A stretch of 64,000 bases of DNA from an uncultured Allomuricauda sp. Its GTDB lineage: Bacteria > Bacteroidota > Bacteroidia > Flavobacteriales > Flavobacteriaceae. The stretch spans positions 79,894 through 143,893 of the forward strand of contig CANLYK010000005.1 in assembly GCA_947495325.1 (NCBI GenBank), given 5' to 3'. Below the pieces are notes generated by a model, which was not told the origin of the DNA, made no database searches, and was given only the letters and a program-made list of their open reading frames with translations. A program made the translations under genes and the position numbers. The number at the start of each line of letters is the position of its first letter. The first letter of the stretch is position 1. This document shows positions 11,974 through 48,285 of this stretch, piece after piece.

Positions 11974-11981
11974 AAAATAAG

Positions 11982-18248: not shown

Positions 18249-18703
18249 TTGGTTTTTTTTAGGTTGGTTTTTAAACTGTAAAATGCATAAATGCAAATAG
18301 ATAAGGACATTACAACAATACTTGTAAATGCTATGGCCATGGGTGCACCCAAGCTAGGCGAACTTTCAGGGATTCCCAAAGCAACGTACTGCAATGCAAA
18401 AATCCCAACGATAGAGAACAGCACAAAAATTGAGAGTGAAATGAGGACTTCTACAATTTGTTGGTGTTTGGGTTTTAATTTGTTGTAAAATATATCCAAA
18501 CTCACATAATAGTCATCCTTCATTGCCAATCCAGCTGCAAAACTCATTGCATACACAAAAAAGAAACGTGAAGCTTCCTCTGTCCAAGACGGTGCGCTAT
18601 CCATCAAAAACCGTGCATAAATTTGCGTCAATGTTGCACTTAGAAACCCTAAGGTGCTAATTAGGGTGCCAAGTTTCAATATGCGTTCAATGAGTTTTTT
18701 CAT
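18245..18703 (-). CDS. dctQ: TRAP transporter small permease (DctQ family)
   Basis: 152 aa with four TM-like segments, between dctP and dctM, with 4-nt overlaps on both sides. Confidence 0.85.
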   Translation of the reverse strand: MKKLIERILKLGTLISTLGFLSATLTQIYARFLMDSAPSWTEEASRFFFVYAMSFAAGLAMKDDYYVSLDIFYNKLKPKHQQIVEVLISLSIFVLFSIVGIFALQYVALGIPESSPSLGAPMAIAFTSIVVMSLSICIYAFYSLKTNLKKTK

Positions 18704-19683: not shown

Positions 19684-19694
19684 GTAATCCTTTA

Positions 19695-20895: not shown

Positions 20896-22467
20896 TTATG
20901 ATAGGAGAATGTAAATTAGAATGGTGAGTGCTACTAAAACTATACCCGAAACATTGACCCATCGCCAGCTTTTATCACTGGTATCTTGTTCAATGGTGTC
21001 TACATAGTCTTTACTCGGATACATTTTGGATACCACTAACATAATAATAAAGTTCAGGACAAACTCTATTCCCCAAAGATGGACAAAATGGATGTTGACT
21101 TCTAAGATAAATGTTGCAAGTATGTAAAATGCAAAACCAAAAAACAATCCGGCCTTGGCTCCTTTTGCATTTACCTGTTTAACAAAGATACCGGCCAGGA
21201 TTACGGAGGAGATTGGAATAAAAAAGATTCCATTCAATTCCTGAAGTAAAAAATAAAGACCATCTGGGGCATAGGCTACTAATGGAGCAACTGCAATAGC
21301 AACAATGGCCAATATTATGGATACCATTTTACCATAATAAACCAGTTTTTCGTCACTAACACTTTTATTGATCAGCTTTTTATAGATGTCATAACAGAAA
21401 ACTGTGGATGCAGAATTTAAAACACTGTTGAAAGTACTAAGAACTGCTCCCAAGATTACTGCAGCGAAAAAACCATATAAATAAGCTGGCAACACCTTTT
21501 TTACCAACATTGGATAAATAAGGTCTGGTGTTTCGTAGTAAGCGTCTTTAAAATAGTAAAAGGCAATCAAACCTGGTAGTACAATTATCAATGGCACCAA
21601 CAGTTTTAAAACACCTGTATAGATTAATCCTTTTTGTGCTTCAACGAGGTTTTTTGCCCCAAAAGCTCTTTGGATAATGGATTGGTTCATTCCCCAGAAA
21701 TAAATTTGGTTGATCATTAGCCCGGTAAACAAAACTGAAAAAGGTAATACCGAATCTGGTGCTCCAATAATGTCAAATTTATCTGGTGCAAAATCATATA
21801 CTGTACTTAAACCATCAAATACATTCCCTTTTCCTATTTGATACAATGCTATGGCCGGAATCAACAACCCACCTAACATAAGACCTATACCATTTAACGT
21901 ATCGGAATAGGCAACTGCTTTTAACCCACCAAAAATTGCATAAAGGGATCCAATCACCCCTATTGCCAAAACGGTATATAAAAGGCCTTCACTTTTGGTA
22001 ATGTTGAACAGTTCAGAAAAATTAAAAACGCTTTCTATGTTTATTGCCCCAGTGTAAAGAACTATTGGAAGTAGGGTAACTACAAAAGAAAGCATCAATA
22101 ATAATGCAACAACGGATCTTGTAACTCCATCAAAACGTTTTTCAAGAAACTCCGGTATGGTGGTTAGACCCATGCGAATAAAACGGGGAAGAAAAAAAAT
22201 GGCAGCTATTACCAGAGCAATTGCTGAAGTAACCTCCCAAGCAATGACTATAATTCCATTTTTATAGGAACTCCCATTCATTCCTATTAAATGTTCCGTT
22301 GAAATATTTGTAAGAATCATGGAACCTGCAATAATAGGCCCCGTAAGACTTTTTCCCGCTAAAAAGTACTCCTTTCCAGTTTTAAAATTATCCTTGCGTA
22401 ATTTATAAACCGTGTAAAAAATCACGAAAAAGGTAAAACCAAAAAAACCGAGGAGTGTCAATAACAT
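20896..22467 (-). CDS. Sodium:solute symporter (SSF/SGLT family). Candidate Na+/myo-inositol transporter by context.
   Basis: 523 aa with about 13-14 TM segments. SSF-like segments are present: YFLAGKSLTGPIIAGSMILTNIS, GGLKAVAYSDTLNG. It lies 15 nt downstream of the MIOX gene. Confidence 0.85.
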   Translation of the reverse strand: MLLTLLGFFGFTFFVIFYTVYKLRKDNFKTGKEYFLAGKSLTGPIIAGSMILTNISTEHLIGMNGSSYKNGIIVIAWEVTSAIALVIAAIFFLPRFIRMGLTTIPEFLEKRFDGVTRSVVALLLMLSFVVTLLPIVLYTGAINIESVFNFSELFNITKSEGLLYTVLAIGVIGSLYAIFGGLKAVAYSDTLNGIGLMLGGLLIPAIALYQIGKGNVFDGLSTVYDFAPDKFDIIGAPDSVLPFSVLFTGLMINQIYFWGMNQSIIQRAFGAKNLVEAQKGLIYTGVLKLLVPLIIVLPGLIAFYYFKDAYYETPDLIYPMLVKKVLPAYLYGFFAAVILGAVLSTFNSVLNSASTVFCYDIYKKLINKSVSDEKLVYYGKMVSIILAIVAIAVAPLVAYAPDGLYFLLQELNGIFFIPISSVILAGIFVKQVNAKGAKAGLFFGFAFYILATFILEVNIHFVHLWGIEFVLNFIIMLVVSKMYPSKDYVDTIEQDTSDKSWRWVNVSGIVLVALTILIYILLS

Positions 22468-22482
22468 TGGAGTTGGATTGTC

Positions 22483-23361
22483 TTAAAACTTCAATGTTTC
22501 TGGTAAATATTTTGATACTAAATCTTGGTAATAGGGTTTTAACGCCTCTGCATCCGGTGGAGTGGGAGCTTTGGAGTATAAATCGTATGGATTGAATTTT
22601 TTGACCCATTCGAACATTTCATGATCTTTTTCATTCATTAGGTGGGCATAAGCTCCTTCTTTGTGCTGGGCATAAAAAGAATGATAACGAATAATATACA
22701 ATGCCGGGTCCGGTAAATGATTTTTCATAATCTGATACAAATATTCATCATGTCCCCAGCTCATTTTCACATTGTCCAAGCCGCAGTTCGGCTCATATAC
22801 ACCATATTTGGATGTAAACCTTTCATCTGTACTATCGGGATTGTCTTTAAAGAATTCTGGATATACAATTTTGTCCGAAAAACTGCATCCAACAGGAAAA
22901 GTGTCTCCAACAACGGCCCATTGCGGTTCCCCGAACAAGCACAGTACTTTTCCAATATCATGTATGAAACCGGTAAGCACAAACCAATCTGGATGGCCAT
23001 CTTGTTTTATGGCTTCTGAAGTTTGTAGCAAATGCTGTAGTTGATCTAAGTCAATATCCGGGTCACTATCGTCAACAAGGGTATTTAGATATTCAACGGC
23101 ACCCCAAAGTGACATCTCCTTTTTATCAAACTTTAAAAACTCTTTCTCCTTTTCGCAAACAAAGTCATATGTCTGGAAGGTGTGGTTTAAACGGTAGAAT
23201 TCTTTTACCCCTTCGACCCTTTCAGAGTCGACATAGTTTCTGAATTCTTCTTTTTCTTTTGCCGTGGCATCAGGATCAGGATATCTTTCCAATAAACTAT
23301 TTTCCCAATCATCAACTTGTTCCATTGGGTTTTTGTCTGTTGCTTTGGAAGAATTCTTCAT
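22483..23361 (-). CDS. myo-Inositol oxygenase (MIOX, HD-domain di-iron enzyme)
   Basis: 292 aa, collinear with remembered mammalian MIOX. There is an identical block GEPQWAVVGDTFPVGC, plus LVDDSDPDIDL, HDIGKVL, MSWGHDEYLYQ, IIRYHSFY, NPYDLYSK and LKPYYQDL. Confidence 0.92.
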   Translation of the reverse strand: MKNSSKATDKNPMEQVDDWENSLLERYPDPDATAKEKEEFRNYVDSERVEGVKEFYRLNHTFQTYDFVCEKEKEFLKFDKKEMSLWGAVEYLNTLVDDSDPDIDLDQLQHLLQTSEAIKQDGHPDWFVLTGFIHDIGKVLCLFGEPQWAVVGDTFPVGCSFSDKIVYPEFFKDNPDSTDERFTSKYGVYEPNCGLDNVKMSWGHDEYLYQIMKNHLPDPALYIIRYHSFYAQHKEGAYAHLMNEKDHEMFEWVKKFNPYDLYSKAPTPPDAEALKPYYQDLVSKYLPETLKF

Positions 23362-23492
23362 AGAATTTTAATTTAATGGTATGTTATTTTAAAACATATA
23401 GCTCAATTACACATGATAAAATTATAATTTCCTGTAAGAGCTTATATGGAGTATTTTGCCAAAAGCATGGATTGATTTTTATATGAAATGGC

Positions 23493-26400
23493 TTATATAA
23501 TATCCACTCTTACTTCATCTTTTATAAGTTTACTTGGTGGATATCCAAATTGTCTTTTAAAACATCTACTAAAATATAAAGGATCATTAAAACCAACAAG
23601 CGTAGTTACTTCTGAAACATTATACTTTTTGGTCTTTAAAAGAATTGCTGATTTCTTCAAACGTACGGTACGAATAAATTCGTTGGGGGCTAAATCCGTC
23701 AGTTCTTTAATTTTCCGATATAATTTAGAGGAACTCATACCTAATTCTGCACATAGGAATGCCGTTGTCAGGTCCGTTTCTTTTAGATTTTTATCGATGA
23801 GCTGGGTAACTTTTTGCATAAATTTCTCATCAATTGGAGAATGGGTAAGAAGACTTATTTCACTTTCGGCTTCCACAGAAAATTTGGATTTTAATCCCAT
23901 TCTGGTAGTAATGATATTTACTATCCTGGTTCTTAATAGTGATGGATCAAATGGTTTGACCAAGTAGCCATCAGCTCCAACATTAAATCCTTTTACCTTA
24001 TCTTCATTTTCAGAAAGTGCCGTCAAAAGGATTACGGGTATATGGCTAATAAATTCATCACTTTTGAGCGCGGCACAAAACTCCAATCCATCCATAACGG
24101 GCATCATTACATCTGCAACACATATTATGGGTTTGATCTGCTTGCAGAGGCGAAGACCTTCTTCTCCATTTTCTGCACTATATACCTTGTAATAATCCGA
24201 TAAGTAGTCTATAAGATAATTTCGAAGCTCGGTATTATCTTCTATCACCACAATTTTTTGCTTTAAATTGACAGAATTAAGTATCTTTTTCTTCGGTTTC
24301 ACCACTTGTACTTCTTTGGTGATTTGATATGGCAATAGCTCATTGATTTCAAAATCCTCATAGAATTTGCGACTAATAGGAACTTTTATGGTGAATATGG
24401 TTCCTTCTCCCGACTTACTTTTAAAAGCTATGCTGCCCTTATGCAACTCAACCAAAGACTTTACCAAGGATAGCCCTATTCCTGAACCAGTCGTACTTTC
24501 TTTACTGTTTCTAGCTTGATAGAATCTGGAAAAAATATTCTTTTGACTGGCTTCGGGAATACCTATTCCATCATCACTTACCTCAATGATCAAATGTTCG
24601 GCCATATCATCACTCAACCCTAAAAACAAATCTACGTTGCCATGATTATTGGAAAACTTTAAGGCATTGGACAACAAATTGTATAGGATTTTGTCCAGCT
24701 TGTCTTTATCAATCCAACCTGAAATAGTTTCGTTTTCACAGTTGAAATTAAAAGAAATATTCTTGTTTTTGGCGAGTTCCTTAAAGGATTCAAAAATACT
24801 TTTTGATTGTTCCAAAATATCAATTTTTGACACCTTCAATTGTAGTTCGCCCGTTTGTGCTTTTCTAAAATCCAGTATTTGAGTAACCAGGTTTAATAGT
24901 CTATTGGCATTATGATGGATCAATTTGGCTCTTGTTTCCTGATACTCGTTCTGAGTTTTACCTGCTTGTTTCAACAGGTCTTTTGCTGGACCTAAAATTA
25001 AGGTCAAAGGTGTTCTTAATTCATGTGAGATGTTGGTGAAAAACCTAAACTTCTCATTGTTCAGTTTTTCATTTCGTTCTTGTTTCAGTTTTTCAAGTAG
25101 CAAAGCTTGCTTTAGCTTCATCCTATTTTTTAATTCTTTTTTACCAAGAAATATGAGAAGGGCTATTATCAATATAAACAGGAAAAATGCTTTGTAAGTA
25201 AACCAAAAAGGTGGCAAAACCCTAATGTTGAAACTTGCTGTCTCACCCCAATACCCATTACTGTTACTGGAGCGGACCTTGAAAGTATAGTTGTCTGGAT
25301 ATAAATTGGTGTATTGTACGGTTCTAGAACTATTATTGGCCGAAATCCAATTTTCATCAAAACCTTCCAGCATATATTCAAATTGGTTCAATCGTTCATT
25401 TGAATAGGAGGGATTTGAGAACTGGATTGAAAAATTACGGTTGTTATATTTGAGTGTGACCTCTCTTTGAAAATTTAAATCTTTGTCCAAAACAGTTTGT
25501 CCATTGATTTCCATTGCTGGGTATACCGTTTTATTTTGGACTTTAAATTCAGAGATAAAAGGTTTTGGAGACCATTGATTTTCTTTTATGGTGTAGGGTG
25601 AAAAATGGATAACACCGTTTTTACCTCCTAGAAATATCTTGGAACCTGCTATGTGATAAAAACCACTTGAGCTGAAAACATCTAACCTATTTCCACTTTT
25701 AACATGATAAACATTAAGGGCCCCGCTGCTAGGCTTTAATCGACCAATACTGTTATTCATGTTCAGCCAAAGGTTTCCATTGGTATCCATTACCATATCG
25801 GTAATCCATTTTCCTATAAGTTCTTTGGGTTCTTTTATGGCGACAAAATTGTTCAATTCTGGTTTGAAGGTGCTTAGGCCCATTCGAGTAGCAGCCCAAA
25901 CTTTATTATCGGTATCTATTAGTACATCACTGACATTGTTGTGTGGCAAAGATTCTTTATCCTCAGTATTGGATTGGTAGATTGTTGTACTCTTGGTAGA
26001 AATATCATACGTGACCACACCATCTTCCGTTGCAAACCATAATTTTTTGTTCTCCTTGTCAAAAGCAATTTTATTAATAGAACTTCCTTCTGCTATTTTG
26101 CTTGTATCGGGAATAGGCCTTAGGCTTTTCTTGTTCAATAGTATAGCTCCCTCTCCAAATGAGCCAATGGCCATTCTATTTTGGTCTATACTTTTAAAGG
26201 TCAAAACAGGCGAAGACTTAAAACCAACATCTACGATATCGGTTTCCTTGGTCACATAATTATATACCAATACCTCACCGTTCCATAGACCGCAATAAAA
26301 GATTCTTCCATCTGTGGAATAGATACTAGCTATATCTGAAGTTTTGTTGTAAAGTGGGGTGATTAAGTCATCATCAAAAAGAAACAAGCCATTATGCCGT

Positions 26401-27572
26401 GTTGCAACGATAAGTTTTTCATCAAAAGTTTTGGAAAACCCTCTAATTCCGGGTGCTTGATTGTCAATATGTTCTGATATACCCTTGTTTAACTTAAATT
26501 GATTTTCATAAGGATCGTATTTATCCAAACCGTCCTCGGTTCCAATCCATAAAACATCTGAAGTATCGAAGTAAAGAGAAGATATCAGGTTGTCCACAAG
26601 TGAGGTATCATCCGAAAGAATCGTATAATGCCATTCAAACTTTCCTTTTGCAATATCTTCCAATTGATCACAGACCAACAACCCCCCTAAAGTCCCCAGC
26701 CAATAACGCCCTTCCGGAGAACGTGCGATTGATACAAAATATGGACCAACTTGATCTCTAGTATAGCTATCATCGATATAGAGGTTTTCAAAAACATCAT
26801 TTTCCTTATCCAATTTGTACAAACCACTTCGGGTGCCTACGAAAATATCTGACTTATGATCTTCGTAGATAAAGTATATATAGGGATTTTTCTCATTGGA
26901 AAAAGGAATAGATAAGGAATACGTTATTGTTTGATCAATTTTCCCATAATTATCAAAGCTGAGTTTCGCAATGGATCTTTTTTCATAGCTACCTATCCAA
27001 ATATTGCCCTTTTTATCTTCAAAAATTTCTTTTATGTACTCAAAACCTTCAAGAGGTATTTTTTTGAATTTTTTAGATTCGGGATAGAACCTAAATAGTC
27101 CTTTGGTTTTTGTACCGACCCAAACGCTTTTCATTCTGTCTACCAGAACCGAACGAATTTCATGGTCCGTGATGCTGTTGGGATTGTTTTTTTCTGGTAA
27201 GAAGGTTTCAAAATTATGGGTCTCGATATCAAGTTTGGTTAATCCATTTCTTGTACCTATCCAAAGATTATTGGAATCACTGTCAAACTCAAGAGCTGTA
27301 ATGTCATCATCGTTTAAGCTATTTTCATTGGAAAAAGAACTCAGGTACGATTTAAATTCATAACCATCAAAGCGATTAAGGCCTGAAAAGGTTCCCAGCC
27401 AAAGAAAACCGTTGTTGTCCTGGACAATATGACGGACCGAGTTGTGGGACAACCCACTATTATCATTATAATGCTCAAACTTTATGTTCTGTGCATATAA
27501 AAAAGTTATGCCACTGATAAACAGTACAAGGCATAGTTGTTTTTTTATTGCAAAACATGATTTGAATAACAT
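23493..27572 (-). CDS. Hybrid two-component system regulator (HTCS): periplasmic beta-propeller/Y_Y_Y sensor, HisKA, HATPase, REC, AraC HTH
   Basis: 1359 aa with repeated WIGT/WLGT propeller motifs, a TM segment FFLFILIIALLIFL, H-box FFTNISHELRTPL and G-box GSGIGLSLV. The REC domain reads VVIEDN...DVMMPVMDG...KPF. The C-terminal HTH reads GFNDPLYFSRCFKRQFGYPPS. Confidence 0.93.
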   Translation of the reverse strand: MLFKSCFAIKKQLCLVLFISGITFLYAQNIKFEHYNDNSGLSHNSVRHIVQDNNGFLWLGTFSGLNRFDGYEFKSYLSSFSNENSLNDDDITALEFDSDSNNLWIGTRNGLTKLDIETHNFETFLPEKNNPNSITDHEIRSVLVDRMKSVWVGTKTKGLFRFYPESKKFKKIPLEGFEYIKEIFEDKKGNIWIGSYEKRSIAKLSFDNYGKIDQTITYSLSIPFSNEKNPYIYFIYEDHKSDIFVGTRSGLYKLDKENDVFENLYIDDSYTRDQVGPYFVSIARSPEGRYWLGTLGGLLVCDQLEDIAKGKFEWHYTILSDDTSLVDNLISSLYFDTSDVLWIGTEDGLDKYDPYENQFKLNKGISEHIDNQAPGIRGFSKTFDEKLIVATRHNGLFLFDDDLITPLYNKTSDIASIYSTDGRIFYCGLWNGEVLVYNYVTKETDIVDVGFKSSPVLTFKSIDQNRMAIGSFGEGAILLNKKSLRPIPDTSKIAEGSSINKIAFDKENKKLWFATEDGVVTYDISTKSTTIYQSNTEDKESLPHNNVSDVLIDTDNKVWAATRMGLSTFKPELNNFVAIKEPKELIGKWITDMVMDTNGNLWLNMNNSIGRLKPSSGALNVYHVKSGNRLDVFSSSGFYHIAGSKIFLGGKNGVIHFSPYTIKENQWSPKPFISEFKVQNKTVYPAMEINGQTVLDKDLNFQREVTLKYNNRNFSIQFSNPSYSNERLNQFEYMLEGFDENWISANNSSRTVQYTNLYPDNYTFKVRSSNSNGYWGETASFNIRVLPPFWFTYKAFFLFILIIALLIFLGKKELKNRMKLKQALLLEKLKQERNEKLNNEKFRFFTNISHELRTPLTLILGPAKDLLKQAGKTQNEYQETRAKLIHHNANRLLNLVTQILDFRKAQTGELQLKVSKIDILEQSKSIFESFKELAKNKNISFNFNCENETISGWIDKDKLDKILYNLLSNALKFSNNHGNVDLFLGLSDDMAEHLIIEVSDDGIGIPEASQKNIFSRFYQARNSKESTTGSGIGLSLVKSLVELHKGSIAFKSKSGEGTIFTIKVPISRKFYEDFEINELLPYQITKEVQVVKPKKKILNSVNLKQKIVVIEDNTELRNYLIDYLSDYYKVYSAENGEEGLRLCKQIKPIICVADVMMPVMDGLEFCAALKSDEFISHIPVILLTALSENEDKVKGFNVGADGYLVKPFDPSLLRTRIVNIITTRMGLKSKFSVEAESEISLLTHSPIDEKFMQKVTQLIDKNLKETDLTTAFLCAELGMSSSKLYRKIKELTDLAPNEFIRTVRLKKSAILLKTKKYNVSEVTTLVGFNDPLYFSRCFKRQFGYPPSKLIKDEVRVDII

Positions 27573-27617
27573 ACTACAATTTACATTTTTAATAATTAAA
27601 GAGCATTCTTTTTAGGA

Positions 27618-29444
27618 TTACAATCGCTCTATTGTATTAGTTTTTAGATTAATCATAAAATTTCCGGATGGATGCCCATGCATCGCCTTATAAAAAATAT
27701 TGCCCCAGAGCGACATTTCCAAATTTTCACAATTCATCAAGTGCTTGCATACCAATTCATATTGTGCCAATCTTTTGCTACCAATCTTTCCTTTTGCCAA
27801 TTCCCCTGCGTTTCTCAATTTGTAGAAATCATATACCATATCTAAACCGGTCCATTTATTTAGAGCCATATATTCAGGTTTATTTTTACTGAGTTTGCCA
27901 ATTGAGGGGATTGACTTGGTGTTCTTTAGTTCCAATTTCAATAGATCATTTCCAGTCGATTTTTCCAATTTTGTGATAAGTTCAGTTGGCCAATCGTTTT
28001 TTAAAAAGCGTAATCGCACAAGTTCTTTTAAATGCTGTTCAGTAAAATCGATATAGGTTTTAGATGCTAATATTTCTTTATCCCAAATCGTATTTGTTGC
28101 CGATTTCTTTAGATGTTGATGTTCTTGCTCATACAACAGGAAAAGGGAACTGAAATTTGAAACGGAATCCACGACAACAGTCTCTATTTCCATTTCTTCT
28201 TTTGAATTGATGGTAAGTATTTTGAAAGCGGGTATATAGCCGGCCAAAGAGGGTGTTTGAATATTGTAGAGTGTTTTTCCGCTTTTAGCTTTGTGGATTC
28301 CAGTATCATTCATGTGCATATGACCTCCAAAATGAAGCTGTATTCCTAAATCTGCAAATAATTCTGCAATGGTATCTTTTGGAACTCTATGCATCTGCAT
28401 CTTGTCCTTTCCAAAAAGTTGCTCCATTTCTTTGGAAGCTCCATCATAAAATTCAACCATTGGGTAATGGCTAAAAGCTATCAAAATCTTTTCCCTCTTT
28501 TCAGCTTCTGAGGAAACTTTTCGTATCCAAGGTAGTAGATGTTTTTTATGGGTCAATATGTTATTATACCCAATACTGGCACTGGAGGTTTCGTTGATTT
28601 TAGAAGAATTGCCACTAATATATATGTTCGCATCTATACCCAATAACCAAATGTCTTTTATAGGTTCCACTAAATAGCTGGCATCTGGTATGGAAATCTG
28701 TTTTTCATTATCCGAGAATTTTCTTTTTTCCACTGCTGAAATTGAAACAGCTTCAGTTAATGTATAATTATCATAATCGTACAATGAAAAGGGTGTTTCC
28801 CAATACAAAAATTCTTTTTTCGGAAAAAACCCAAAGGATGAGAGTTCATTTAAAATCTCTAAATATCCCCATTGTTTAATTTCGGACGAAATTATAGGAT
28901 GCAGTTTATGATTACTGCTTATAAGAGAGCTATCGCTTAAAATGGCTAGCTCATTGCCTTGAGCGCCTAGAAAATTAGTTTTTCCAGCTTCTCTGCTATA
29001 AGGCCTCACAGGATCATGGTTACCAGTGGTCAGAAAAAACTGGATACCATGGTTTACTGTGTAAGCATCAAGTATTTTTTTTAGTGCCTTAATATTTATG
29101 GGTTGCCCGTCATCACTAAAATCACCAGGTAAAACAACAAGAGTTATGTTTCTTGAAACAATTTCATCCAAAGCTGTTTTAAAAGCGAAATAATTCTCGT
29201 TAAATAATCGCGTTGATCGCAGTTGCGACCCCATTGTTCTTATGGTATTGTAACTGCCGGTAGCTGGATTTTTGATTCCCTTATAGTTGGCATCGATAAA
29301 ATTTGCATGAATATCCTGTAGGTGTACATCGGCCAAAAAGGCAATCTTGACAGGTTCTGAAATCGTTTTTTGTTCGCTTTTACATGAGCCAATAACTACA
29401 AAACAGAGAATCTGAATAAAATAAAAGTAAAATCTATTTTTCAT
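27618..29444 (-). CDS. Calcineurin-like metallophosphoesterase lipoprotein with a roughly 200-aa helical C-terminal extension
   Basis: 608 aa with lipobox VIGSC. The ordered metallophosphoesterase motifs are present: LADVHL (DxH), PGDFSDDG (GDxxD), TGNHD (GNHD), FSHYP (H), GGHMHM (GHxH). Confidence 0.85.
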   Translation of the reverse strand: MKNRFYFYFIQILCFVVIGSCKSEQKTISEPVKIAFLADVHLQDIHANFIDANYKGIKNPATGSYNTIRTMGSQLRSTRLFNENYFAFKTALDEIVSRNITLVVLPGDFSDDGQPINIKALKKILDAYTVNHGIQFFLTTGNHDPVRPYSREAGKTNFLGAQGNELAILSDSSLISSNHKLHPIISSEIKQWGYLEILNELSSFGFFPKKEFLYWETPFSLYDYDNYTLTEAVSISAVEKRKFSDNEKQISIPDASYLVEPIKDIWLLGIDANIYISGNSSKINETSSASIGYNNILTHKKHLLPWIRKVSSEAEKREKILIAFSHYPMVEFYDGASKEMEQLFGKDKMQMHRVPKDTIAELFADLGIQLHFGGHMHMNDTGIHKAKSGKTLYNIQTPSLAGYIPAFKILTINSKEEMEIETVVVDSVSNFSSLFLLYEQEHQHLKKSATNTIWDKEILASKTYIDFTEQHLKELVRLRFLKNDWPTELITKLEKSTGNDLLKLELKNTKSIPSIGKLSKNKPEYMALNKWTGLDMVYDFYKLRNAGELAKGKIGSKRLAQYELVCKHLMNCENLEMSLWGNIFYKAMHGHPSGNFMINLKTNTIERL

Positions 29445-29456
29445 TAAGGCTCTCTT

Positions 29457-30530: not shown

Positions 30531-30558
30531 TTGTAAGCCTTATGTATAAAAATTGATA

Positions 30559-31848: not shown

Positions 31849-31908
31849 AATAATATAAAAGTTGTTTAATCCTTAAGTTTTGACAATCTATTTATTGTCT
31901 GGACAAAA

Positions 31909-34230: not shown

Positions 34231-34234
34231 TTGC

Positions 34235-36298
34235 TTAAATTTTAGTGATTTGGGTTACATTTCGTTCTACTTGATTCAGCATTTCTTGGGTAGGAAAACC
34301 ATTATTGGGTCTTCTGATAGCAGGGTCGTACCATTTCTCCCATTTTGGGTTTTTGTCGCCTTCCAAACGATTCTGATATATTTTGGCCAAATTCTTTTTT
34401 GCATCCTCAAGAATAACAAGAGCTTCCTTTAAGTAGGTAACATTACTGGAAGTCTCATATTTTCTTTTCAGTAGTGACATTTGGTGAAGGTTACTTTCAA
34501 ATAGCATCAAATCGGAATACAATAATGTGGGTAAATACACATATGAATAATAAAACCCATCTTCTTTTGATAATTTCAATCCTTTTTTTGCCTCGGTCAA
34601 GGCACTGTCTATATGCTTTTTGGTGAAGCGCACATGCTCAAGGTCATTTTCTACCCTTTCAAACTCATAGGGCACAGGCGGTTTTCCGGGTCTTTCTATA
34701 GGTGAATTTGACAGATAGGCTATGGCTTCACGTATTTCCCATAGATGTTGTACATAACCAATTCTACCAGAAGATTGCGCTTTGTTCAATAACTTCATTG
34801 ATTTTACGGCATGTACTGCAGTGTTCTTATCAAAATATCGATGCGACCACTCTTCATAATATTGCTCTGCGGAAAAAGTATCTGGATTTTGGCAAACATC
34901 ACTATAGGCTTCTATATTGAATATAAAAGGTCTAAAGTTTTGACCATTGACCATACAGTATTCATAAGCTCCATAGTCATTGAATATTTTTTTCATTTTG
35001 GCCTCCACTTTTTCCGGATACGGATTGTGGACAGTATGATTTAACCAAAAACCAGCATGCATGTAGGTGCCAAACGTGTAGTCATCTGTAGTTTGTGGCA
35101 AATGTTCAAAATCGCCAAAACCATCATCTGCCCATGCAATGATCCAATCTTTTGGTGGCCTGAAGCCATCATTATACATTTGCATGGCATCAGAGTAACA
35201 AATTAGTGCCTTGGTAGCATCATTTTTATAGGAGTCGACCAAATCATCAAAAACTGTAAACACTTCATTGAATACTTCTATTTTGTCTTCGCCACAGCTA
35301 CTTTTGTATTCCCAATCCCAAACTTGATTTCGAGGTCTTAGAATAAAAATATCTGTTTTTGCTAATGGAGTCTCTTCAAAATAGTAGCGCCAAGCCTTGA
35401 TCCAATCTTCTTTATAATCAGCCCAACAACTTGCTTTCTCTTCATCCATGGGATGTATTTGGTAACCCAAAGAAAAATCGACTTGAATTTTCATACCCTT
35501 GCTATGGGCATAGTCCATCATTTTCTCTAGGTAGGGAATATCAATTTGATAGTCTGGATGAAGCTCTTGGTATTCTGGACGTAGATAAAATTCCGGTCTC
35601 CCCAACATATCGAAAAACTGAATTGCATTGTATCTGAGCTTGACCAAGGAATTGATCATTTCGGTGTAGCTTTCCCAATCATATTCCAATAATTTTCCCC
35701 TGTAGCTGGCCAATTCATCCACATCATTTTCAAAATAACATAAAATGGGTACTTTGGGTGGGGCAATCGTTTTACTTTCAAAGGCAAATAAGTCTATTTC
35801 ATCAATCTTATTAGGTATCTTTCCAGTCCAATATGCCAATGGATCTATACCCAAAACTTCTTCGGCATAATCGTAAACTGCATATTGCATACCTTGAACA
35901 TTGGAGCCAGCCAATATGATAGCATTTTGTCCACTTTCCAAATTGGACTTTGACCAAATGCCTCCTCTTGGACCTGGATTTTCCTTAGATAGACCTAACA
36001 ATCCTTCCTTAACCAGATTGCCAATAACTTGATTTGATTCTGTAGTGCCCAGAACGAAGATTGTACCGTTTTTTGGAAATTGACTACCTTCAGAAATAAC
36101 CAGAATCGTCTTGTCCGTTACTTTTTGAAGATCAACTTTGAAATCGTTTATTGTATTTATTTCGATTTCATTAGCAGTTTTCCCAAGGACCAAATAAACC
36201 TTATTTGATTCGTCATTGGAACATGCTATGTTCAAAAAGAAAAAAAGGACAGCCACTGTAGCATAAATGCTACTGCTTATGGTTTTATGTATCCCCAT
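34235..36298 (-). CDS. GH115-like glycoside hydrolase (alpha-glucuronidase fold) lacking the usual C-terminal beta-sandwich, lipoprotein
   Basis: 687 aa with lipobox NIAC. The N-terminal domain pattern is IFVLGT..SNQVIGNLVKEG...IILAGSNVQGMQYAVYDYAEEVLGIDPLAYW. After it come FENDVDE, LVKLRYNAIQF and IIAWADDGFGDFEHLP, which parallel GH115 segments as I remember them. DUF4838 is an alternative assignment. Confidence 0.5.
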   Translation of the reverse strand: MGIHKTISSSIYATVAVLFFFLNIACSNDESNKVYLVLGKTANEIEINTINDFKVDLQKVTDKTILVISEGSQFPKNGTIFVLGTTESNQVIGNLVKEGLLGLSKENPGPRGGIWSKSNLESGQNAIILAGSNVQGMQYAVYDYAEEVLGIDPLAYWTGKIPNKIDEIDLFAFESKTIAPPKVPILCYFENDVDELASYRGKLLEYDWESYTEMINSLVKLRYNAIQFFDMLGRPEFYLRPEYQELHPDYQIDIPYLEKMMDYAHSKGMKIQVDFSLGYQIHPMDEEKASCWADYKEDWIKAWRYYFEETPLAKTDIFILRPRNQVWDWEYKSSCGEDKIEVFNEVFTVFDDLVDSYKNDATKALICYSDAMQMYNDGFRPPKDWIIAWADDGFGDFEHLPQTTDDYTFGTYMHAGFWLNHTVHNPYPEKVEAKMKKIFNDYGAYEYCMVNGQNFRPFIFNIEAYSDVCQNPDTFSAEQYYEEWSHRYFDKNTAVHAVKSMKLLNKAQSSGRIGYVQHLWEIREAIAYLSNSPIERPGKPPVPYEFERVENDLEHVRFTKKHIDSALTEAKKGLKLSKEDGFYYSYVYLPTLLYSDLMLFESNLHQMSLLKRKYETSSNVTYLKEALVILEDAKKNLAKIYQNRLEGDKNPKWEKWYDPAIRRPNNGFPTQEMLNQVERNVTQITKI

Positions 36299-36346
36299 TA
36301 GTTATAAATGACTTTTCTGATTTCGAAAATGGTTAGACCTCAAATA

Positions 36347-36376
36347 ATATAGGCAGGCAAATGGGCCTGCCTATAT
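36347..36376 (-). terminator. Strong intergenic stem-loop between susD and the downstream hydrolase genes (attenuator or RNA-stabilising hairpin)
   Basis: ATATAGGCAGGC-aaatgg-GCCTGCCTATAT is a perfect 12-bp stem with a 6-nt loop in the 120-nt susD/GH115-like spacer. On the minus strand only a modest U-rich tail (UAUUUGAGG) follows. Confidence 0.5.
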
Positions 36377-36418
36377 TTTGAAATTAACTAAACTAACTCA
36401 AACTACTATTTTTTAAAC

Positions 36419-38068
36419 CTAGTATCCTGGATTTTGTAATAACGAGCCATCTGAAAGTTCTAATTCAGAAGATGGAATTGGTCTTAACAAATGAATACTA
36501 GAGTCGAAAGTACCATGGTCTATAACATGTGGATTGTATAAATTTATACGTTCTTCCAATTTACCGGTGCGTTTTAACACTGCCCAGCGATTAGCTTCAC
36601 CTGCCAATTCTAAAGCCCTTTCGTTAAGTATATCGTCTATGGTAACCGAAGCATATTCATTGGCAACTCCTGTTGCCCGCTCCCTAACAATATTTAAATG
36701 CATTAGGGCAGATGCCGTATTTCCAGCTCCTAAATAAGCCTCGGCAGCCAATAAATGTGTGCCGGCTACCCTAAAGACAAAGGTATCACGTGCCCCATCC
36801 GTAGTCTCATTAAAAATCTCATCATCAAACTTCTTGAAAATAGGGAAATTTGTCCTTTCAGGATTAAGAGAGTACAGGTAATTAACTCCTGGAATATCAT
36901 CTGGTAAACCAAATAGGTACTGATCTGGTTGATATACCCAATAGCGATCTAACCTTTCTGCTAATTCTGCTGCATCCAATGCTACTTTTGGGTAGTAAAC
37001 TACGGTATCTCCTGCTACTATTGGATCGGGTGCCGTAGGCTCATCGCCATCAGCAAGTATAGCCCTATGGATAGTTGCATCTTCCCTAGAATCATTATCT
37101 GCAAATAGCGTATAAAAATAGGGAGTAGGCATCATACTGGCGCTACTAAAACCATAGGGTGTTGTTGTTCTGTTTACCCCAGGGTAATTGGCAACTTGGT
37201 TCATGAAAATAGAATGTTTGGTATTTACCTGGTCAGTAGTTAATCCTCCTGAACCCCACTGTACTGCAAATAATATTTCATCATTAACCTGATTATCATA
37301 ACTAAAGACTTCAGCAAAGGTTTGGCTTCTAATGTCATAAGATCCAATAGCTGCTTCTGCAAGAGTTGCAGCGGTATCAAAATCTGTAGCACTTGCAAAC
37401 GAAGAATAGCCTCTGGTTAAATAAACCTCTGCCAATACATGTTGTGCCGCTCTTTTAGAAAACCGGCCAGTGTCAGGAGCATCCAATAAATCAGGGATTG
37501 CTGCTTCCAAATCTGCAATGATTTGTGCGTAGGTTTCTTCTTCAGTACTTCTAGTATAGTCTGATCGAATAGTAGTAGGTTCATCTAATTCCAATACCAT
37601 ACCACCATATTGTTGCACCATATTGAAAAATGCTAAGCCGCGCAATGCTCTCGCTTGCGCAATACCATACGCTTTTTCACCCAATTTGGAATCGCTCCAG
37701 TTAATCTGGTTTTCGTATCTATTAATGGCAGTATTTGCTTTTGAAACAAGATCATAGTTTCTTATCCAAGCACTGCCTCCGGTCCCAGAAGTAAAACCAA
37801 AATAATCATTCGTGGTAGAAAATGAATTTAATTCACCCTTAATAGTAAACAAATCAGTTCCCAAAAACTTTAAATTGTAATCTTTATAAATATCCCTTAG
37901 GGAGACATAAATTCCAACTACTAATTGATCAGCCGTATTTTCATCAATAAAATTTTCGCTTGTTATATCTGAAAAAATATCTTCTTCAATATAACTATCA
38001 CATGCATTAAAGGTTATCATACCTATTAGTATGAAACCAATGTGTTTGATTTTTCTAGATAGTTTCAT
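36419..38068 (-). CDS. susD: SusD/RagB-family outer-membrane glycan-binding lipoprotein
   Basis: 549 aa with lipobox TFNAC, 14 nt downstream of susC. It has SusD-like helical/TPR content and the C-terminal segment RALELAGEANRWAVLKR. Confidence 0.9.
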   Translation of the reverse strand: MKLSRKIKHIGFILIGMITFNACDSYIEEDIFSDITSENFIDENTADQLVVGIYVSLRDIYKDYNLKFLGTDLFTIKGELNSFSTTNDYFGFTSGTGGSAWIRNYDLVSKANTAINRYENQINWSDSKLGEKAYGIAQARALRGLAFFNMVQQYGGMVLELDEPTTIRSDYTRSTEEETYAQIIADLEAAIPDLLDAPDTGRFSKRAAQHVLAEVYLTRGYSSFASATDFDTAATLAEAAIGSYDIRSQTFAEVFSYDNQVNDEILFAVQWGSGGLTTDQVNTKHSIFMNQVANYPGVNRTTTPYGFSSASMMPTPYFYTLFADNDSREDATIHRAILADGDEPTAPDPIVAGDTVVYYPKVALDAAELAERLDRYWVYQPDQYLFGLPDDIPGVNYLYSLNPERTNFPIFKKFDDEIFNETTDGARDTFVFRVAGTHLLAAEAYLGAGNTASALMHLNIVRERATGVANEYASVTIDDILNERALELAGEANRWAVLKRTGKLEERINLYNPHVIDHGTFDSSIHLLRPIPSSELELSDGSLLQNPGY

Positions 38069-38082
38069 TTTACTCTTTTTTA

Positions 38083-41000
38083 TTAATAGGTTAATTTTAA
38101 ACCGAATAAGACTGTTTTTACAGCATATGTCATATTGTAGGAATTCTGAAGACCAGTTTCTGGATCAGGACCCAAGTAATCTGTAAACGTAAACGGATTT
38201 TGAACATCTAAAGACAGTCGCAAGTTTGACACTTTTAATTTTTCCAAAAGATCTTGTGGAAATTGATATCCTAGACCAATATTTGCAACACGCACAAAAG
38301 ATAAGTCTTCATAGGTCCATCCAGTTCCTCCATAGTCAGGGGATGTGAAGGTTCCGCCTGGATTATTAGGTGTCCAATAATCTATATCCAAGCTATTGAA
38401 TGTTGCACGATCCGCAGCTGGTGCAAAATTTTGTAGAAATTCAGAATGCCCATAAGCACCTTGTCTGGTATTTACCTGAACATTAAGCTCCAAATTTTTA
38501 TAATTAAAGGTATTGGTCATACCTGCAATCCAATCAGGAGAGTTTTGGCCTAACACTACCTTGTCATCTTGGTCAATAACACCATCATTATCTTGATCTA
38601 CAAACTTGTATTGTCCAGGACGATAACCGTAAGAGTTTGCCTCTGCAGCTTCATCCACTTGCCAAATTCCTTCAACTGCATAATTCCAAATAGCATCAAC
38701 TGGAGCGCCAATTTTTAAGACCCCGTGGTTTCCAAAAGGAATTTCATCTAAATCACCATCAATTTCCAAAATTTCATTCGTGTTTTTGGTGAAATTGATG
38801 CTAGTACGCCATGTAAAATCATTGGTTCTTACATTAATTGTGTTCAGCGTAAGTTCTACCCCACTATTACGAACTGATCCAAAATTACCAAGAGCTGTAT
38901 CGTAACCGGTAATATCAGATAATGCTCTACCAAGAATACTACCTTCAGTAGTTTTGTTGTAGTATTCAAAGCCTGCACTTAATCTGTTATCCAAAATAGA
39001 GAAATCCAATCCAAAGTTATATTCTTTGGAAACTTCCCACGTTAAATCTGCATTTGGTAAACCATCAACTATTTTTCCTACAGTTGAATCATCCCCGAAT
39101 ATGTAATTGGAAGCTCCTAAAAATGCTAATGAACTATAAGCACCTATGGTACTGTCATTACCAGCTTCTCCATAACTTAAACGAAGTTTTAGGTTGTTCA
39201 GCCAATCTACGTCTTGCAAAAATTCTTCTTCGCTAGCTCGCCAAGCAAAAGCTGCGGATGGAAAGAAGTTCCACTTATTTCCGGCAGAGAGTTTAGAAGA
39301 ACCATCATATCTTCCAGTAAAAGTAAATAGGTATCTATCTTTAAAAGTATAGTTTAAACGACCGGCAAAAGAGGCCAAGGTCTGTTTTGAATAAAAACTA
39401 CCATAGTCATTAGGAACGTCTCCTCCTCCTTGAGTATTGAAGAAAAGATAAGCATCCGTATCAAAATTCCGAACCTGAATATCACTACCTTCCAAATTAT
39501 TATAGTACAATGAAGTAATCAACGTAGTTTTCAGATTATGATCATCGGCCAAATCAAAATCAAAATCCAATATGTTATCCCAAGTATATGAAGTGTTGAA
39601 ATCTGATTCATAATATGATCGTATACGACTTGGGTCGTTACGTGAAGACTTTGTCAACAATCCACGATATTCCCCAAAACGTTGGGCATTGATATTTGGA
39701 GCAAATTGTGTTTTAAAATTAATCCAATCGGTAGGCTTATAGTTTAAAAATACATTAGCAATAACATCTAATGATCTGTTATTTACGCGCCAAGCTCCAT
39801 CAGCATCATAAATTGGATTAACAAAGCGTAAATCTTGGTCATCAGGAAATAAAATAGGGTCTCCATTAACATCGTTTGGATTTACAGTAGGTGCCAATCG
39901 TAAAGAACTTCGAAATAGTTCTCTACTACCTTGTTCACGTTCCGATAGTGCCAAATAAGCTTTGATGCCTACCGTAAGTTTATCTGAAACCCTTTTTGAT
40001 ATGGAAGCACTCAAATTATAACGCTCAAACTCTTCAATGCCCATTACACCTTCATCATGCAAATACCCCAGTGATCCGTTATAGACTAAACCATTACTGC
40101 CACCAGACATACCTACAGTATGACTAGTCTGAACTCCTGTTTGTCTGAACAGGTCCATCCAATCGGTATATCTCCCATTGGCAACATTGCTCGCCTCCTC
40201 GTTTGAAATTTGAAATTCCGTTGAACGGTCTATAACTACATTGTTATAATCGTCTACGGTTCCAGTACCTGCCCATGCTCTTGCCCTTAATACGTCATCT
40301 ACAAAATTAACATATTCAGGACCGTTAAATAAGTCTGGGATATTAGTGGCAGAACGCAAACCAAATGAAGCATCATATGTAAAAACAGTTTTACCTTCAA
40401 TACCATTCTTGGTCGTTATAATGACAACCCCATTTGCACCACGTGATCCATAAATTGCAGTAGCAGAAGCATCTTTTAAAATATCCATTTGTTGAATATC
40501 GGCCGGATTCAATACATTAATATCCTCAAAGAAAATACCATCTACCACATATAAAGGTTTTGAAAGGTCATCGCTAAGATTATCACTAATACCATCACGC
40601 CCGGCATTGGTATTTGTAATTACTGTATTTCCCCTTATTTTTATGGAAAGTGGCGCTCCAGGTTTGGAGCTTAAGGCTCGTACATCAACACCAGCTACTC
40701 TACCTTGTATCGCTTGTCCAATGTCTGTCTTTCGCTGTTCGGTTAATGTTTCGTTGCTTACTGATGCAACAGCTCCGGTAAGGTCACTTTTCTTTACAGA
40801 GCCATAACCTATGACCACCACTTCATCAAGACCGGTTGATGAGGTTGTTAATTGTACGGAATAGTTTGAAGAGCCGTCCAGAACAATTTCTTTGGTTTCG
40901 AAACCGATATATGACACTACAATAGTAGCATCACTACCTGATACGGAAATACTAAAATTTCCATCAAAATCAGTTACGACTCCATTAGTGGTTCCTTTTT

Positions 41001-41127
41001 CTTGCACATTGGCTCCTGGTAATGGTACGTTTTGATCGTCAACCACAACTCCAGTAATTTGGGTTTGGGCTAAAGAACCAGACGAAACCGCGAATACCAA
41101 TGTCAGTATTAAAAGTTTCAATTTCAT
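38083..41127 (-). CDS. susC: SusC/RagA-family TonB-dependent outer-membrane transporter
   Basis: 1014 aa with a signal peptide. It has a carboxypeptidase-regulatory-like domain (ITGVVVDDQNVPLPGANVQ), a plug (LDEVVVIGYGSVKKSDLTGAV, IKIRG) and a barrel ending in GLKLTY. There is no STN/anti-sigma extension. Confidence 0.93.
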   Translation of the reverse strand: MKLKLLILTLVFAVSSGSLAQTQITGVVVDDQNVPLPGANVQEKGTTNGVVTDFDGNFSISVSGSDATIVVSYIGFETKEIVLDGSSNYSVQLTTSSTGLDEVVVIGYGSVKKSDLTGAVASVSNETLTEQRKTDIGQAIQGRVAGVDVRALSSKPGAPLSIKIRGNTVITNTNAGRDGISDNLSDDLSKPLYVVDGIFFEDINVLNPADIQQMDILKDASATAIYGSRGANGVVIITTKNGIEGKTVFTYDASFGLRSATNIPDLFNGPEYVNFVDDVLRARAWAGTGTVDDYNNVVIDRSTEFQISNEEASNVANGRYTDWMDLFRQTGVQTSHTVGMSGGSNGLVYNGSLGYLHDEGVMGIEEFERYNLSASISKRVSDKLTVGIKAYLALSEREQGSRELFRSSLRLAPTVNPNDVNGDPILFPDDQDLRFVNPIYDADGAWRVNNRSLDVIANVFLNYKPTDWINFKTQFAPNINAQRFGEYRGLLTKSSRNDPSRIRSYYESDFNTSYTWDNILDFDFDLADDHNLKTTLITSLYYNNLEGSDIQVRNFDTDAYLFFNTQGGGDVPNDYGSFYSKQTLASFAGRLNYTFKDRYLFTFTGRYDGSSKLSAGNKWNFFPSAAFAWRASEEEFLQDVDWLNNLKLRLSYGEAGNDSTIGAYSSLAFLGASNYIFGDDSTVGKIVDGLPNADLTWEVSKEYNFGLDFSILDNRLSAGFEYYNKTTEGSILGRALSDITGYDTALGNFGSVRNSGVELTLNTINVRTNDFTWRTSINFTKNTNEILEIDGDLDEIPFGNHGVLKIGAPVDAIWNYAVEGIWQVDEAAEANSYGYRPGQYKFVDQDNDGVIDQDDKVVLGQNSPDWIAGMTNTFNYKNLELNVQVNTRQGAYGHSEFLQNFAPAADRATFNSLDIDYWTPNNPGGTFTSPDYGGTGWTYEDLSFVRVANIGLGYQFPQDLLEKLKVSNLRLSLDVQNPFTFTDYLGPDPETGLQNSYNMTYAVKTVLFGLKLTY

Positions 41128-46222: not shown

Positions 46223-46275
46223 AATAATAATTACAGCAAAAATTATTACTGAATTTTTACTTGAAAAATCAAAAC

Positions 46276-47097: not shown

Positions 47098-47106
47098 AAG
47101 AGTGGT

Positions 47107-48282: not shown

Positions 48283-48285
48283 TAC

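Follow-up and report, generated by a model that had tools for sequence, protein, structure and literature searches.

Which substrate is served by a locus that sets glycosidases, two phosphoesterases and a myo-inositol oxygenase on one strand behind a SusC/SusD pair? The window analysed here is a 64,000-nucleotide stretch of contig CANLYK010000005.1 (positions 79,894 to 143,893 of the forward strand; assembly GCA_947495325.1) from an uncultured Allomuricauda sp. of the Flavobacteriaceae, and the locus occupies its positions 20896–41127 on the minus strand. From sequence comparison, we think it probable, with modest confidence, that this is a locus of the polysaccharide utilisation locus (PUL) type that answers to a hybrid two-component system (HTCS) and is specialised for glycosyl-inositol-phospho-lipid head groups. 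Among these, glycosyl inositol phosphoceramide (GIPC) with a glucuronic acid (GlcA)-α1,2-inositol (Ins)-phosphoceramide core, of the mannose (Man)-GlcA-Ins-phosphate (P) type, with or without fucose, would fit best.

Organisation of the locus

A first-pass annotation, made from the sequence letters, had described one uninterrupted minus-strand string from susC to the HTCS gene, with a myo-inositol oxygenase and a solute symporter next on the same strand. This description holds, as ten open reading frames were found and all ten family calls match Pfam. The string begins with a SusC-type TonB-dependent transporter (38083–41127, 1014 aa; Pfam CarbopepD_reg_2, Plug and TonB_dep_Rec_b-barrel; TIGR04056, 820 bits) and a SusD-type surface glycan-binding lipoprotein (36419–38068, 549 aa; SusD_RagB and SusD-like_3). 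Three glycoside hydrolase (GH) genes follow, encoding a divergent GH115-family lipoprotein that is a predicted α-glucuronidase for GlcA-α1,2-inositol (34235–36298, 687 aa; PF15979, 72 bits), a GH92 α-mannosidase lipoprotein (31909–34230, 773 aa; Glyco_hydro_92, 431 bits, with Glyco_hydro_92N and TIGR01180) and a GH29 α-L-fucosidase with an SPI signal peptide (30559–31848, 429 aa; Alpha_L_fucos, 231 bits). The GH92 protein had been called divergent, which its score does not bear out; it is an ordinary member of the family. Next come a PI-PLC-C1 lipoprotein, that is, a Ca2+-dependent phosphoinositide phospholipase C-like protein (PLC; 29457–30530, 357 aa; PF16670, 418 bits), and a metallophosphoesterase (MPE) lipoprotein with a C-terminal helical domain (27618–29444, 608 aa; PF00149), predicted to act on inositol phosphate or a cyclic phosphate. 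The HTCS (23493–27572, 1359 aa; Reg_prop, Y_Y_Y, HisKA, HATPase_c, Response_reg and HTH_18), a myo-inositol oxygenase (MIOX; 22483–23361, 292 aa; PF05153, 372 bits) and a Na+/solute symporter (SSF; 20896–22467, 523 aa; PF00474; NF007790, 673 bits), a predicted myo-inositol importer, complete the string. NCBIfam supplied no names for the PLC, MPE, MIOX, GH115-like and GH29 proteins.

Intergenic gaps from susC to the SSF gene measure 14, 120, 4, 60, 28, 12, 45, 131 and 15 bp, in that order. As in other PULs, susC and susD adjoin (14-bp gap), and carbohydrate-active enzymes (the GH115-like, GH92 and GH29 proteins) and an HTCS are encoded on the same strand. The PLC and MPE genes lie inside the operon, with the glycosidases on one side and the HTCS on the other, separated by gaps of 12–45 bp. 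Inspection of the N-termini revealed lipoprotein boxes in SusD (...FNAC, then acidic residues), the GH115-like protein, GH92, PLC and MPE, and no signal peptide in MIOX; these predicted signals fit a periplasmic or surface route that finishes in the cytoplasm. A scan of the window for sigma-70 promoters and terminators stayed at background level (66 promoter-like sites against 72.9 expected from shuffles). A GC-containing hairpin (36354–36373, minus strand) lies within the 120-bp susD-GH115 spacer, which is the only gap of any size in the glycosidase segment, and might act as an attenuator or mark a processing site.

Conservation of the locus across Bacteroidota

One genome per GTDB species was scanned with the PLC alignment, and the best 80 of at least 582 loci were examined after annotation by tblastn with the window proteins, all-against-all clustering of open reading frames and Pfam searches on cluster representatives. 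Sixty-four of these PLC-anchored loci were full-length, 43 of them with an orthologous HTCS (HTCS-type) and 21 without, the latter including a class resembling PUSI of Flavobacterium johnsoniae (see below). The two groups differed in gene content. MPE was present in 42 of the 43 HTCS-type loci, in each case directly upstream of the HTCS, and in 9 of the 21 others; the corresponding counts were 40 and 2 for GH92, 34 and 2 for canonical GH115, 17 and 0 for the GH115-like type of the window, and 19 and 1 for MIOX. Any GH115-family gene was found in 41/43 versus 2/21 loci (Fisher test, 5e-12), and among the 43 HTCS-type loci the presence of MIOX tracked that of the GH115-like gene (both in 14, neither in 21, discordant in 8; p 9e-5), although both co-occurrence tests ignore phylogeny.

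HTCS orthologues with 45–65% identity were located downstream of MPE in 47 of the 72 PLC loci with enough flank. In related loci, orthologues of SusC (54–98%), SusD (55–97%) and GH92 (62–90%) were also retained, GH29 orthologues (72–83%) occurred in 15 of the 43 HTCS-type loci, and in several relatives a FucP fucose permease follows the HTCS or the MIOX-SSF pair. HTCS-type loci range over many genera of Flavobacteriaceae as well as Cyclobacteriaceae, Prolixibacteraceae, Marinifilum, Ancylomarina and Saccharicrinis. Cellulophaga baltica DSM 24729, Maribacter stanieri DSM 19891, Mariniflexile gromovii KCTC 12570 and Flavobacterium glycines Gm-149 are among the cultured strains that carry the locus. 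Because the arrangement recurs in many species and genera with orthologues at 50–85% identity, it is not a product of chance. The link between the PLC gene and a SusC/D-type locus, first noticed in this single contig, was thus recovered in relatives, where PLC-MPE-HTCS with GH92 and GH115 upstream and MIOX(-SSF) downstream is conserved across Flavobacteriaceae and beyond.

The accessory genes of relatives include GH29, GH3, GH125, GH2, GH28, GH27, GH43, GH51, GH78-like and SASA/BD-FAE esterase genes. In soil and freshwater Flavobacterium, the order is DUF4861-GH28-GH92-GH43-GH89-HGSNAT-like-PLC-GH115-MPE-HTCS, with a GH89 (NAGLU) match of 496 bits and a firm assignment of the HGSNAT-like N-acetyltransferase (profile against the Protein Data Bank (PDB), human HGSNAT, E 3e-37). 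These are homologues of the lysosomal pair NAGLU and HGSNAT, standing side by side, and the GlcN(Ac)-α1,4-GlcA disaccharide trimmed in heparan sulfate is of the same type as that of GlcN(Ac)-GIPC. Unlike the lysosomal pair, the bacterial proteins belong to a periplasmic or inner-membrane context, and both are absent from the window. Two further families without a Pfam or NCBIfam match, of approximately 190 aa (19 loci) and 600 aa (8 loci), lie between GH92 and PLC in many HTCS-type loci (for example, L019:6316-6882 and L019:7099-8895; also L020, L030, L034 and L101-L151).

GH115-family proteins

Plain sequence searches of the PLC, MPE and GH115-like proteins against the PDB gave weak matches only, so structure prediction was needed for MPE and the GH115-like protein. 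The latter matches PF15979 weakly (72 bits against a cut-off of 27, residues 188–508) and lacks the C-terminal GH115_C domain. A profile search against the PDB returned GH115 chains exclusively, and its AlphaFold model (pLDDT 86) had GH115 structures as the top 11 Foldseek neighbours (E 3e-21 to 4e-18, TM-score 0.61–0.66, about 15% identity), followed by GH138 and GH67, both α-uronidase families. Pfam, profile and fold thus agree with the GH115 membership proposed in the first-pass annotation.

In BoAgu115A, the active-site residues are Asp206, Arg328, Asp332, Glu375, Tyr420, His422 and Asp424, of which Tyr420 and His422 bind the carboxylate (PMC3879575). Our alignment reproduces the published numbering (Lys374/Glu375, Tyr420 and His422; PMC3879575), and Asp206 was mapped through an alignment with SdeAgu115A (4zmh) that spans the F-L-N-D motif. 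D192, D370, Y412 and H414, all invariant in the GH115-like proteins, correspond to Asp206, Glu375, Tyr420 and His422, respectively; Gly416 stands where BoAgu115A has Asp424, and no alignment was obtained for the Arg328/Asp332 loop. The retained Asp equivalent is the putative catalytic Asp. Compared with the characterised α-glucuronidases BoAgu115A, SdeAgu115A and BtGH115A, the window protein shares the fold, the domain order (TM-score 0.63–0.66) and the equivalents of Asp206, Glu375 (as Asp), Tyr420 and His422, but is about 15% identical, shorter (687 aa), without GH115_C and changed at Asp424. Judging from the alignment and the model, it is plausibly a distant member of the family that is still able to bind uronic acid. 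Known GH115 substrates are xylan and arabinogalactan, whereas the window protein is predicted to act on GlcA-inositol. The canonical GH115 of relatives scores 440 bits with PF15979, carries GH115_C and, in the 34 HTCS-type loci that have it, almost always stands between PLC and MPE.

The two phosphoesterases and their relation to PUSI

The PLC covers positions 3–328 of the 329 of PF16670, that is, the full length, and its placement among the PLC-like phosphodiesterases in the first-pass annotation was upheld by this search. H39-N40, E84-x-D86 (E84-L-D86 in the window) and H130 are invariant among 13 homologues; by analogy with PLC X-domains, we take the H-N, E-x-D and second-His positions to serve as catalytic histidines and Ca2+ ligands. 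The solved bacterial Ca2+-dependent PI-PLCs are remote (5fyo, E 6e-5; 3h4w, E 0.03; over about 110 residues), and the substrate specificity of these characterised enzymes is therefore not transferable. Among 2745 PLC homologues, some carry an esterase-domain fusion. In several genera, the PLC gene is about 612–618 aa long and has an N-terminal α/β-hydrolase esterase (Abhydrolase_3, Peptidase_S9, BD-FAE) fused to PI-PLC-C1 (P0008, P0024, P0043, P0062 and P0115; L012, L013, L025 and L026), and in other genera PLC is directly preceded by a SASA + BD-FAE esterase gene. These fusions and neighbours suggest that the natural substrate is O-acylated or O-acetylated.

In MPE, the motifs D39-x-H41, G107-D108, G141-N-H-D144, H326 and G374-H-x-H377 are invariant in 26 sequences. 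Its model (pLDDT 84.6) is closest to the Listeria phosphodiesterase Lmo2642 (Foldseek E 4e-17), followed by SMPDL3A, SMPDL3B and acid sphingomyelinase (E about 1e-8 to 1e-7, with TM-scores of only 0.3–0.5). Because MPE has these sphingomyelinase-like fold neighbours, either PLC or MPE may be the lipid cleaver and the other the phosphate remover. PLC is 57–73% identical throughout the set, and a neighbour-joining tree of PLC and MPE lacked a clean division into HTCS-type and PUSI-type sequences, so a split in specificity cannot be claimed.

The nearest precedent for the pair is PUSI of Flavobacterium johnsoniae, which comprises PusC1/PusD1 (Fjoh_4168/4169), the extracytoplasmic function (ECF) sigma factor Fjoh_4171 and the PF00149 + PF16670 pair Fjoh_4172/4173 (PMC8115612). 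PUSI is induced by starvation for inorganic phosphate (Pi) and is the commonest PUS in Flavobacterium, and lipid head groups were proposed as its likely substrates (Lidbury et al. 2021, PMC8115612). PUSI and the window are alike in placing a SusC/D-like pair beside a PI-PLC-C1 protein and a metallophosphoesterase of roughly 600 aa. PUSI lacks glycoside hydrolases, answers to the Pho regulon through an ECF sigma factor and Pho control and has been interpreted as a phosphorus-scavenging system, whereas the window has an unrelated SusCD (its SusC about 31% identical to the PUSI-like SusC), GH115/GH92/GH29, an HTCS and MIOX-SSF. Set against PUSI, the gene set of the window is a carbon-catabolic design. 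About 20 PUSI-like loci (PhoA-GDPD2, SusC, SusD, PLC, MPE) were present in our PLC set, with a different SusCD and often a PhoA-GDPD2 phosphatase; their PLC and MPE are about 59% and 44% identical to those of the window, respectively. In five of these clusters (L036, L046, L049, L060 and L076, from Pricia, Euzebyella, Cytophaga sp. and a Flavobacteriaceae metagenome-assembled genome), the order PhoA-GDPD2, SusC, SusD, PLC and usually MPE is directly followed by a convergent uxaC and a TRAP transporter; by these neighbours, even phosphate-type clusters are linked to hexuronate catabolism.

Myo-inositol oxygenase and the glucuronate route

MIOX covers positions 2–249 of the 249 of PF05153. On the plus strand beyond susC, the window encodes a glucuronate module (46261–49704) of a UxuB-like short-chain dehydrogenase/reductase (adh_short_C2), UxuA (442 bits) and UxaC (644 bits), followed by a DctPQM TRAP transporter (49701–52469; DctP, DctQ and DctM), predicted to take up hexuronate. 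Pfam thus recovered the module that the first-pass annotation had placed near the locus, and these three enzymes are the predicted sink for GlcA and the MIOX product.

In the reverse direction, we examined 80 metagenome loci anchored on MIOX at 70–82% identity. Among loci with enough flank, the HTCS immediately preceded MIOX in 24 of 47, and MPE was upstream in 23 of 43. Within 2.5 kb downstream of MIOX, 33 of 61 such loci had an SSF of at least 55% identity; under the wider definition of the SSF cluster (≥30% identity over ≥60% of the length), members occurred in 58 of the 80, some of them about 5 kb downstream and about 33% identical only. Genes of the uxu type flank MIOX-SSF in L093, L160 and L040, and L093, L160 and several PUSI-type loci have TRAP genes together with UxaC. 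L093 (3–5500) and L160 (8008–14900) carry a uxuB-uxuA-[MIOX-SSF]-uxaC-dctP operon, and this embedding provides direct contextual support for MIOX feeding the glucuronate pathway. It implies a MIOX-based catabolism of myo-inositol to 2-keto-3-deoxygluconate (KDG) in Bacteroidota that replaces the Iol pathway. The attachment to the PUL also survives in rearranged loci; in L079, MIOX-SSF is divergent from GH92-...-PLC-HGSNAT-GH115-MPE-HTCS and yet adjoins the PUL, and in L087 it lies beside the GH92 orthologue. The synteny check named in the first-pass annotation accordingly came out in its favour, as did the family searches on the PLC and GH115-like proteins: MIOX follows the HTCS, usually with SSF, in 19 of the 43 HTCS-type loci. 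As a refinement, an orthologous PUL of Zobellia and Arenibacter has no PLC, MPE or MIOX nearby.

A proposed route for GIPC head groups

The core of PLC, GH115, GH92, MPE, SusCD and HTCS maps one-to-one onto the bonds of Man-α1,4-GlcA-α1,2-Ins-1-P-ceramide. Based on family membership and conserved gene context, the PI-PLC-C1 lipoprotein would cut the lipid-phosphate bond and release a soluble inositol-phosphate glycan, which SusC/SusD would take in. In the periplasm, exo-trimming could then proceed with GH29 removing fucose, GH92 removing α-mannose and the GH115-family enzyme removing α-GlcA from inositol, while MPE would strip the phosphate, or open a cyclic phosphate, to yield myo-inositol and Pi. 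SSF would import inositol and the TRAP system GlcA. Cytoplasmic MIOX would convert inositol to D-glucuronate, both products would pass through UxaC, UxuB and UxuA to KDG, and the HTCS would respond to a breakdown intermediate.

The relatives bear on the identity of the sugars. A GlcN(Ac)-α1,4-uronic acid terminus characterises the other main plant GIPC head group, and arabinose, galactose and hexose decorations are known (PMC8553973). GH89 and the HGSNAT-like protein represent the two activities needed for GlcN(Ac)-α1,4-uronic acid and so map to GlcN(Ac)-GlcA-inositol-phosphoceramide, and the GH43, GH51, GH27 and GH2 genes of Flavobacterium loci fit the arabinose and galactose decorations. The first-pass annotation had named GIPC and glycosylphosphatidylinositol (GPI)-type head groups together. 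GIPC is now much better supported, as the conserved core matches Man/GlcN(Ac)-GlcA-Ins-P-ceramide, and since canonical GH115 is wedged between PLC and MPE in most relatives, GPI is kept only as a minor rival.

A precedent for the proposed first reaction, from GIPC to ceramide and Man-GlcA-Ins-P, is the secreted GIPC-PLC of Botrytis cinerea (BCIN07g04350, 'sphingomyelinase'), which releases Man-GlcA-Ins-P from plant GIPC; such glycans therefore exist in nature (PMC11496612). The 'sphingomyelinase' theme of this enzyme recurs in the acid-sphingomyelinase/SMPDL3-like fold neighbours of the window MPE. The fungal enzyme differs in being eukaryotic and virulence-associated, with no downstream catabolic pathway described, and in the window the foremost candidate for the first step is, by contrast, the PI-PLC-C1 protein.

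Evidence against GIPC use and alternative substrates

Several observations weigh against GIPC as the substrate. MIOX is missing from 24 of the 43 HTCS-type loci, and the window itself has no canonical GH115, its GH115-like protein being the distant one described above, about 15% identical to characterised enzymes and without an Asp424 equivalent. Classical bacterial PI-PLCs require a free inositol 2-OH, which is glycosylated in GIPC. The founder of the Streptomyces (S. antibioticus) PI-PLC family may use a 1,6-cyclic route, on which the feasibility of cleavage with an O-2-glycosylated inositol would depend; the literature searched yielded no paper on this mechanism. A minimal orthologous PUL of SusC-SusD-GH115-like-GH92-HTCS was found in Arenibacter algicola (L162, 5117–18539) and Zobellia (L163, 5183–18474), where the PUL is without GH29, PLC, MPE, MIOX and SSF and has no PLC, MPE or MIOX nearby; the imported glycan thus need not be lipid-derived. 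The SusC and HTCS of this PUL are 73–81% and 57.5–58% identical to those of the window, respectively, and SusC/SusD (72–84%) are closer to the window than the two glycosidases (62–66%). A short 3keto-disac_hyd gene flanks the PUL in both genera. The PLC-MPE pair also belongs to a Pi-starvation regulon and so could serve phosphorus acquisition (PMC8115612). GlcA-containing GIPC is documented for land plants and not for marine algae, and one red alga has a hexuronate-free GIPC (PMC8553973).

The alternative that survives best, albeit an unlikely one, is that three cassettes without a common substrate are juxtaposed, namely, an ordinary α-mannoside/uronate PUL, a PUSI-like phosphorus-scavenging PLC-MPE pair and an independent inositol/MIOX cassette. 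The minimal PUL speaks for it, and since PLC-MPE forms a separate PUSI-like cluster in Zobellia (L067 and L075), the modules are separable. At least 20 species further have PLC-MPE with other SusCD and PhoA and no carbohydrate-active enzymes, the pair responds to Pi in F. johnsoniae (PMC8115612), and MIOX-SSF stands alone or in uxu operons in many metagenome contigs. On the other hand, PLC and MPE are set within the operon at gaps of 12–45 bp, their placement is kept across families and orders with GH115 inserted between them, and GH115 accompanies PLC in merely 2 of the 21 non-HTCS loci. The MIOX linkage moreover survives the rearrangements in L079 and L087, and MIOX correlates with the GH115-like gene.

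It is similarly improbable that the locus serves other inositol-phosphate glycoconjugates, such as GPI anchors (Man3-GlcN-Ins-P-lipid), protist glycoinositolphospholipids or fungal Man-Ins-P-ceramides with mannose, galactose or fucose decorations; GH92 would then be the main trimmer, and the GH115-like protein would act on a non-GlcA α-linkage to inositol. GH92 is indeed present in 40 of the 43 HTCS-type loci, the α-1,6-mannosidase family GH125, GH2 and GH29 recur, and the HGSNAT-like protein and GH89 would also suit GlcN-α1,6-Ins. The window holds the divergent GH115-like gene only. GPI anchors, however, are far scarcer than GIPC. The GH115-like protein retains the carboxylate-binding residues for a uronate and has only uronidases as its closest fold neighbours, and 34 of the 43 HTCS-type loci carry canonical GH115 between PLC and MPE. 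Red seaweeds contain inositol-phosphoceramides (PMC8401436), which, together with the hexuronate-free GIPC of one red alga (PMC8553973), favours this class of substrate.

An ordinary mannan or N-glycan PUL with unrelated neighbours, which the first-pass annotation had offered as its alternative, was rejected as the principal explanation, since PLC and MPE sit between the glycosidases and the HTCS across orders; an α-mannan or N-glycan PUL would combine an endo-enzyme of GH76, GH99 or GH18 with GH92, GH125 or GH130, and the ten genes include a single GH92 and no endo family. Sphingomonad glycosphingolipids (α-GlcA-ceramide, or Man-Gal-GlcN-α1,4-GlcA-ceramide) or another α-GlcA glycolipid, with the phosphoesterases acting on unrelated co-extracted phospholipids, are a very improbable substrate: the GH115, GH89 + HGSNAT-like, GH27 and GH92 of relatives match the sugars of the sphingomonad glycosphingolipid GSL-4A, but the conserved PLC, MPE, MIOX and SSF are left unexplained and no ceramide glucuronidase-type enzyme is implied.

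Comparison with described PULs

The locus shares the susC-susD pair, exo-glycosidases of GH92/GH29/GH115, the HTCS and tight co-directional packing with the canonical HTCS-regulated PULs of Bacteroidota, such as those of Bacteroides for α-mannan and xylan. It differs in having no endo-acting glycanase, in carrying two phosphoesterases within the operon and in the attached inositol transporter and oxygenase; its predicted substrate is a glycolipid head group, whereas canonical PULs address polysaccharides. In the literature searched, which left most subscription journals outside, no paper joined a PUL, PI-PLC, GH115 and MIOX or treated bacterial GIPC catabolism. A proteome paper on arabinogalactan use by Maribacter mentions GH115 but neither phospholipase nor inositol, and offers no link to the locus (PMC11036162). 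The first-pass annotation had likewise been aware of no described PUL for this substrate class; the combination of SusCD, PLC and MPE was already known as PUSI (PMC8115612). The locus is a PUL, a known kind of system, whose predicted substrate class is new and whose enzyme set is unusual, and PUSI is its nearest precedent.

Neighbouring genes

Divergent from susC, the segment 41478–45460 (plus strand) holds the gene of a 3-keto-disaccharide-hydrolase (DUF1080) protein along with genes of two GFO/IDH/MocA oxidoreductases that bear twin-arginine signals. Related genes, also noted in L123, L124, L147, L149, L160, L161, L162 and L163, recur beside MIOX/uxu genes in unrelated metagenome contigs, and the operon may be an oxidative (3-keto) glycoside-cleavage or inositol-isomer module tied to the same pathway. 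A Nudix/NrtR-type (AraR-like winged-helix) regulator (45468–46139, minus strand) stands between the GFO genes and the uxu operon and is kept in the closest relative, L161. Directly downstream of SSF, 16974–20672 (minus strand) encodes a secreted PF04199 'putative cyclase' protein and a second TRAP DctPQM. The plus-strand cluster at 446–16943 comprises a sulfatase, an AraC regulator, an enolase-superfamily dehydratase, a second GH29 with a C-terminal domain, an MFS transporter, an FMN-dependent dehydrogenase and a pyruvate carboxylase-like biotin enzyme, and looks like a cluster for sulfated-fucan or fucose catabolism. At 53637–62613 (plus strand), a second, unrelated PUL begins with an HTCS (1371 aa), SusC (1018 aa) and SusD (519 aa).

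Implications

GIPCs have been dubbed 'the major sphingolipids on earth' and make up a large share of plasma-membrane lipid in plants, and in some algae, fungi and protists. We propose, more tentatively than the substrate itself, that the locus might represent the first route by which bacteria catabolise GIPC head groups completely, widespread in marine and soil Bacteroidota, with three new specificities and a MIOX route. The new specificities would be GIPC phospholipase C activity of a PI-PLC-C1 protein, cleavage of GlcA-α1,2-inositol by GH115 and by a new GH115 subfamily, and a periplasmic inositol-phosphate metallophosphoesterase, and both halves of the GlcA-Ins core would converge on one pathway through MIOX. 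If this is true, functions would be given to the very common PLC-MPE pair, to the new GH115 subfamily and to bacterial MIOX, and the PUL paradigm would come to cover glycolipid head groups as well as polysaccharides. Bacteroidota of the sea, the rhizosphere and perhaps the gut would then receive a large and overlooked flow of carbon and phosphorus from the membranes of eukaryotes, and as inositol-phosphate glycans modulate plant immunity, the bacteria that consume them could matter in plant-microbe interactions.

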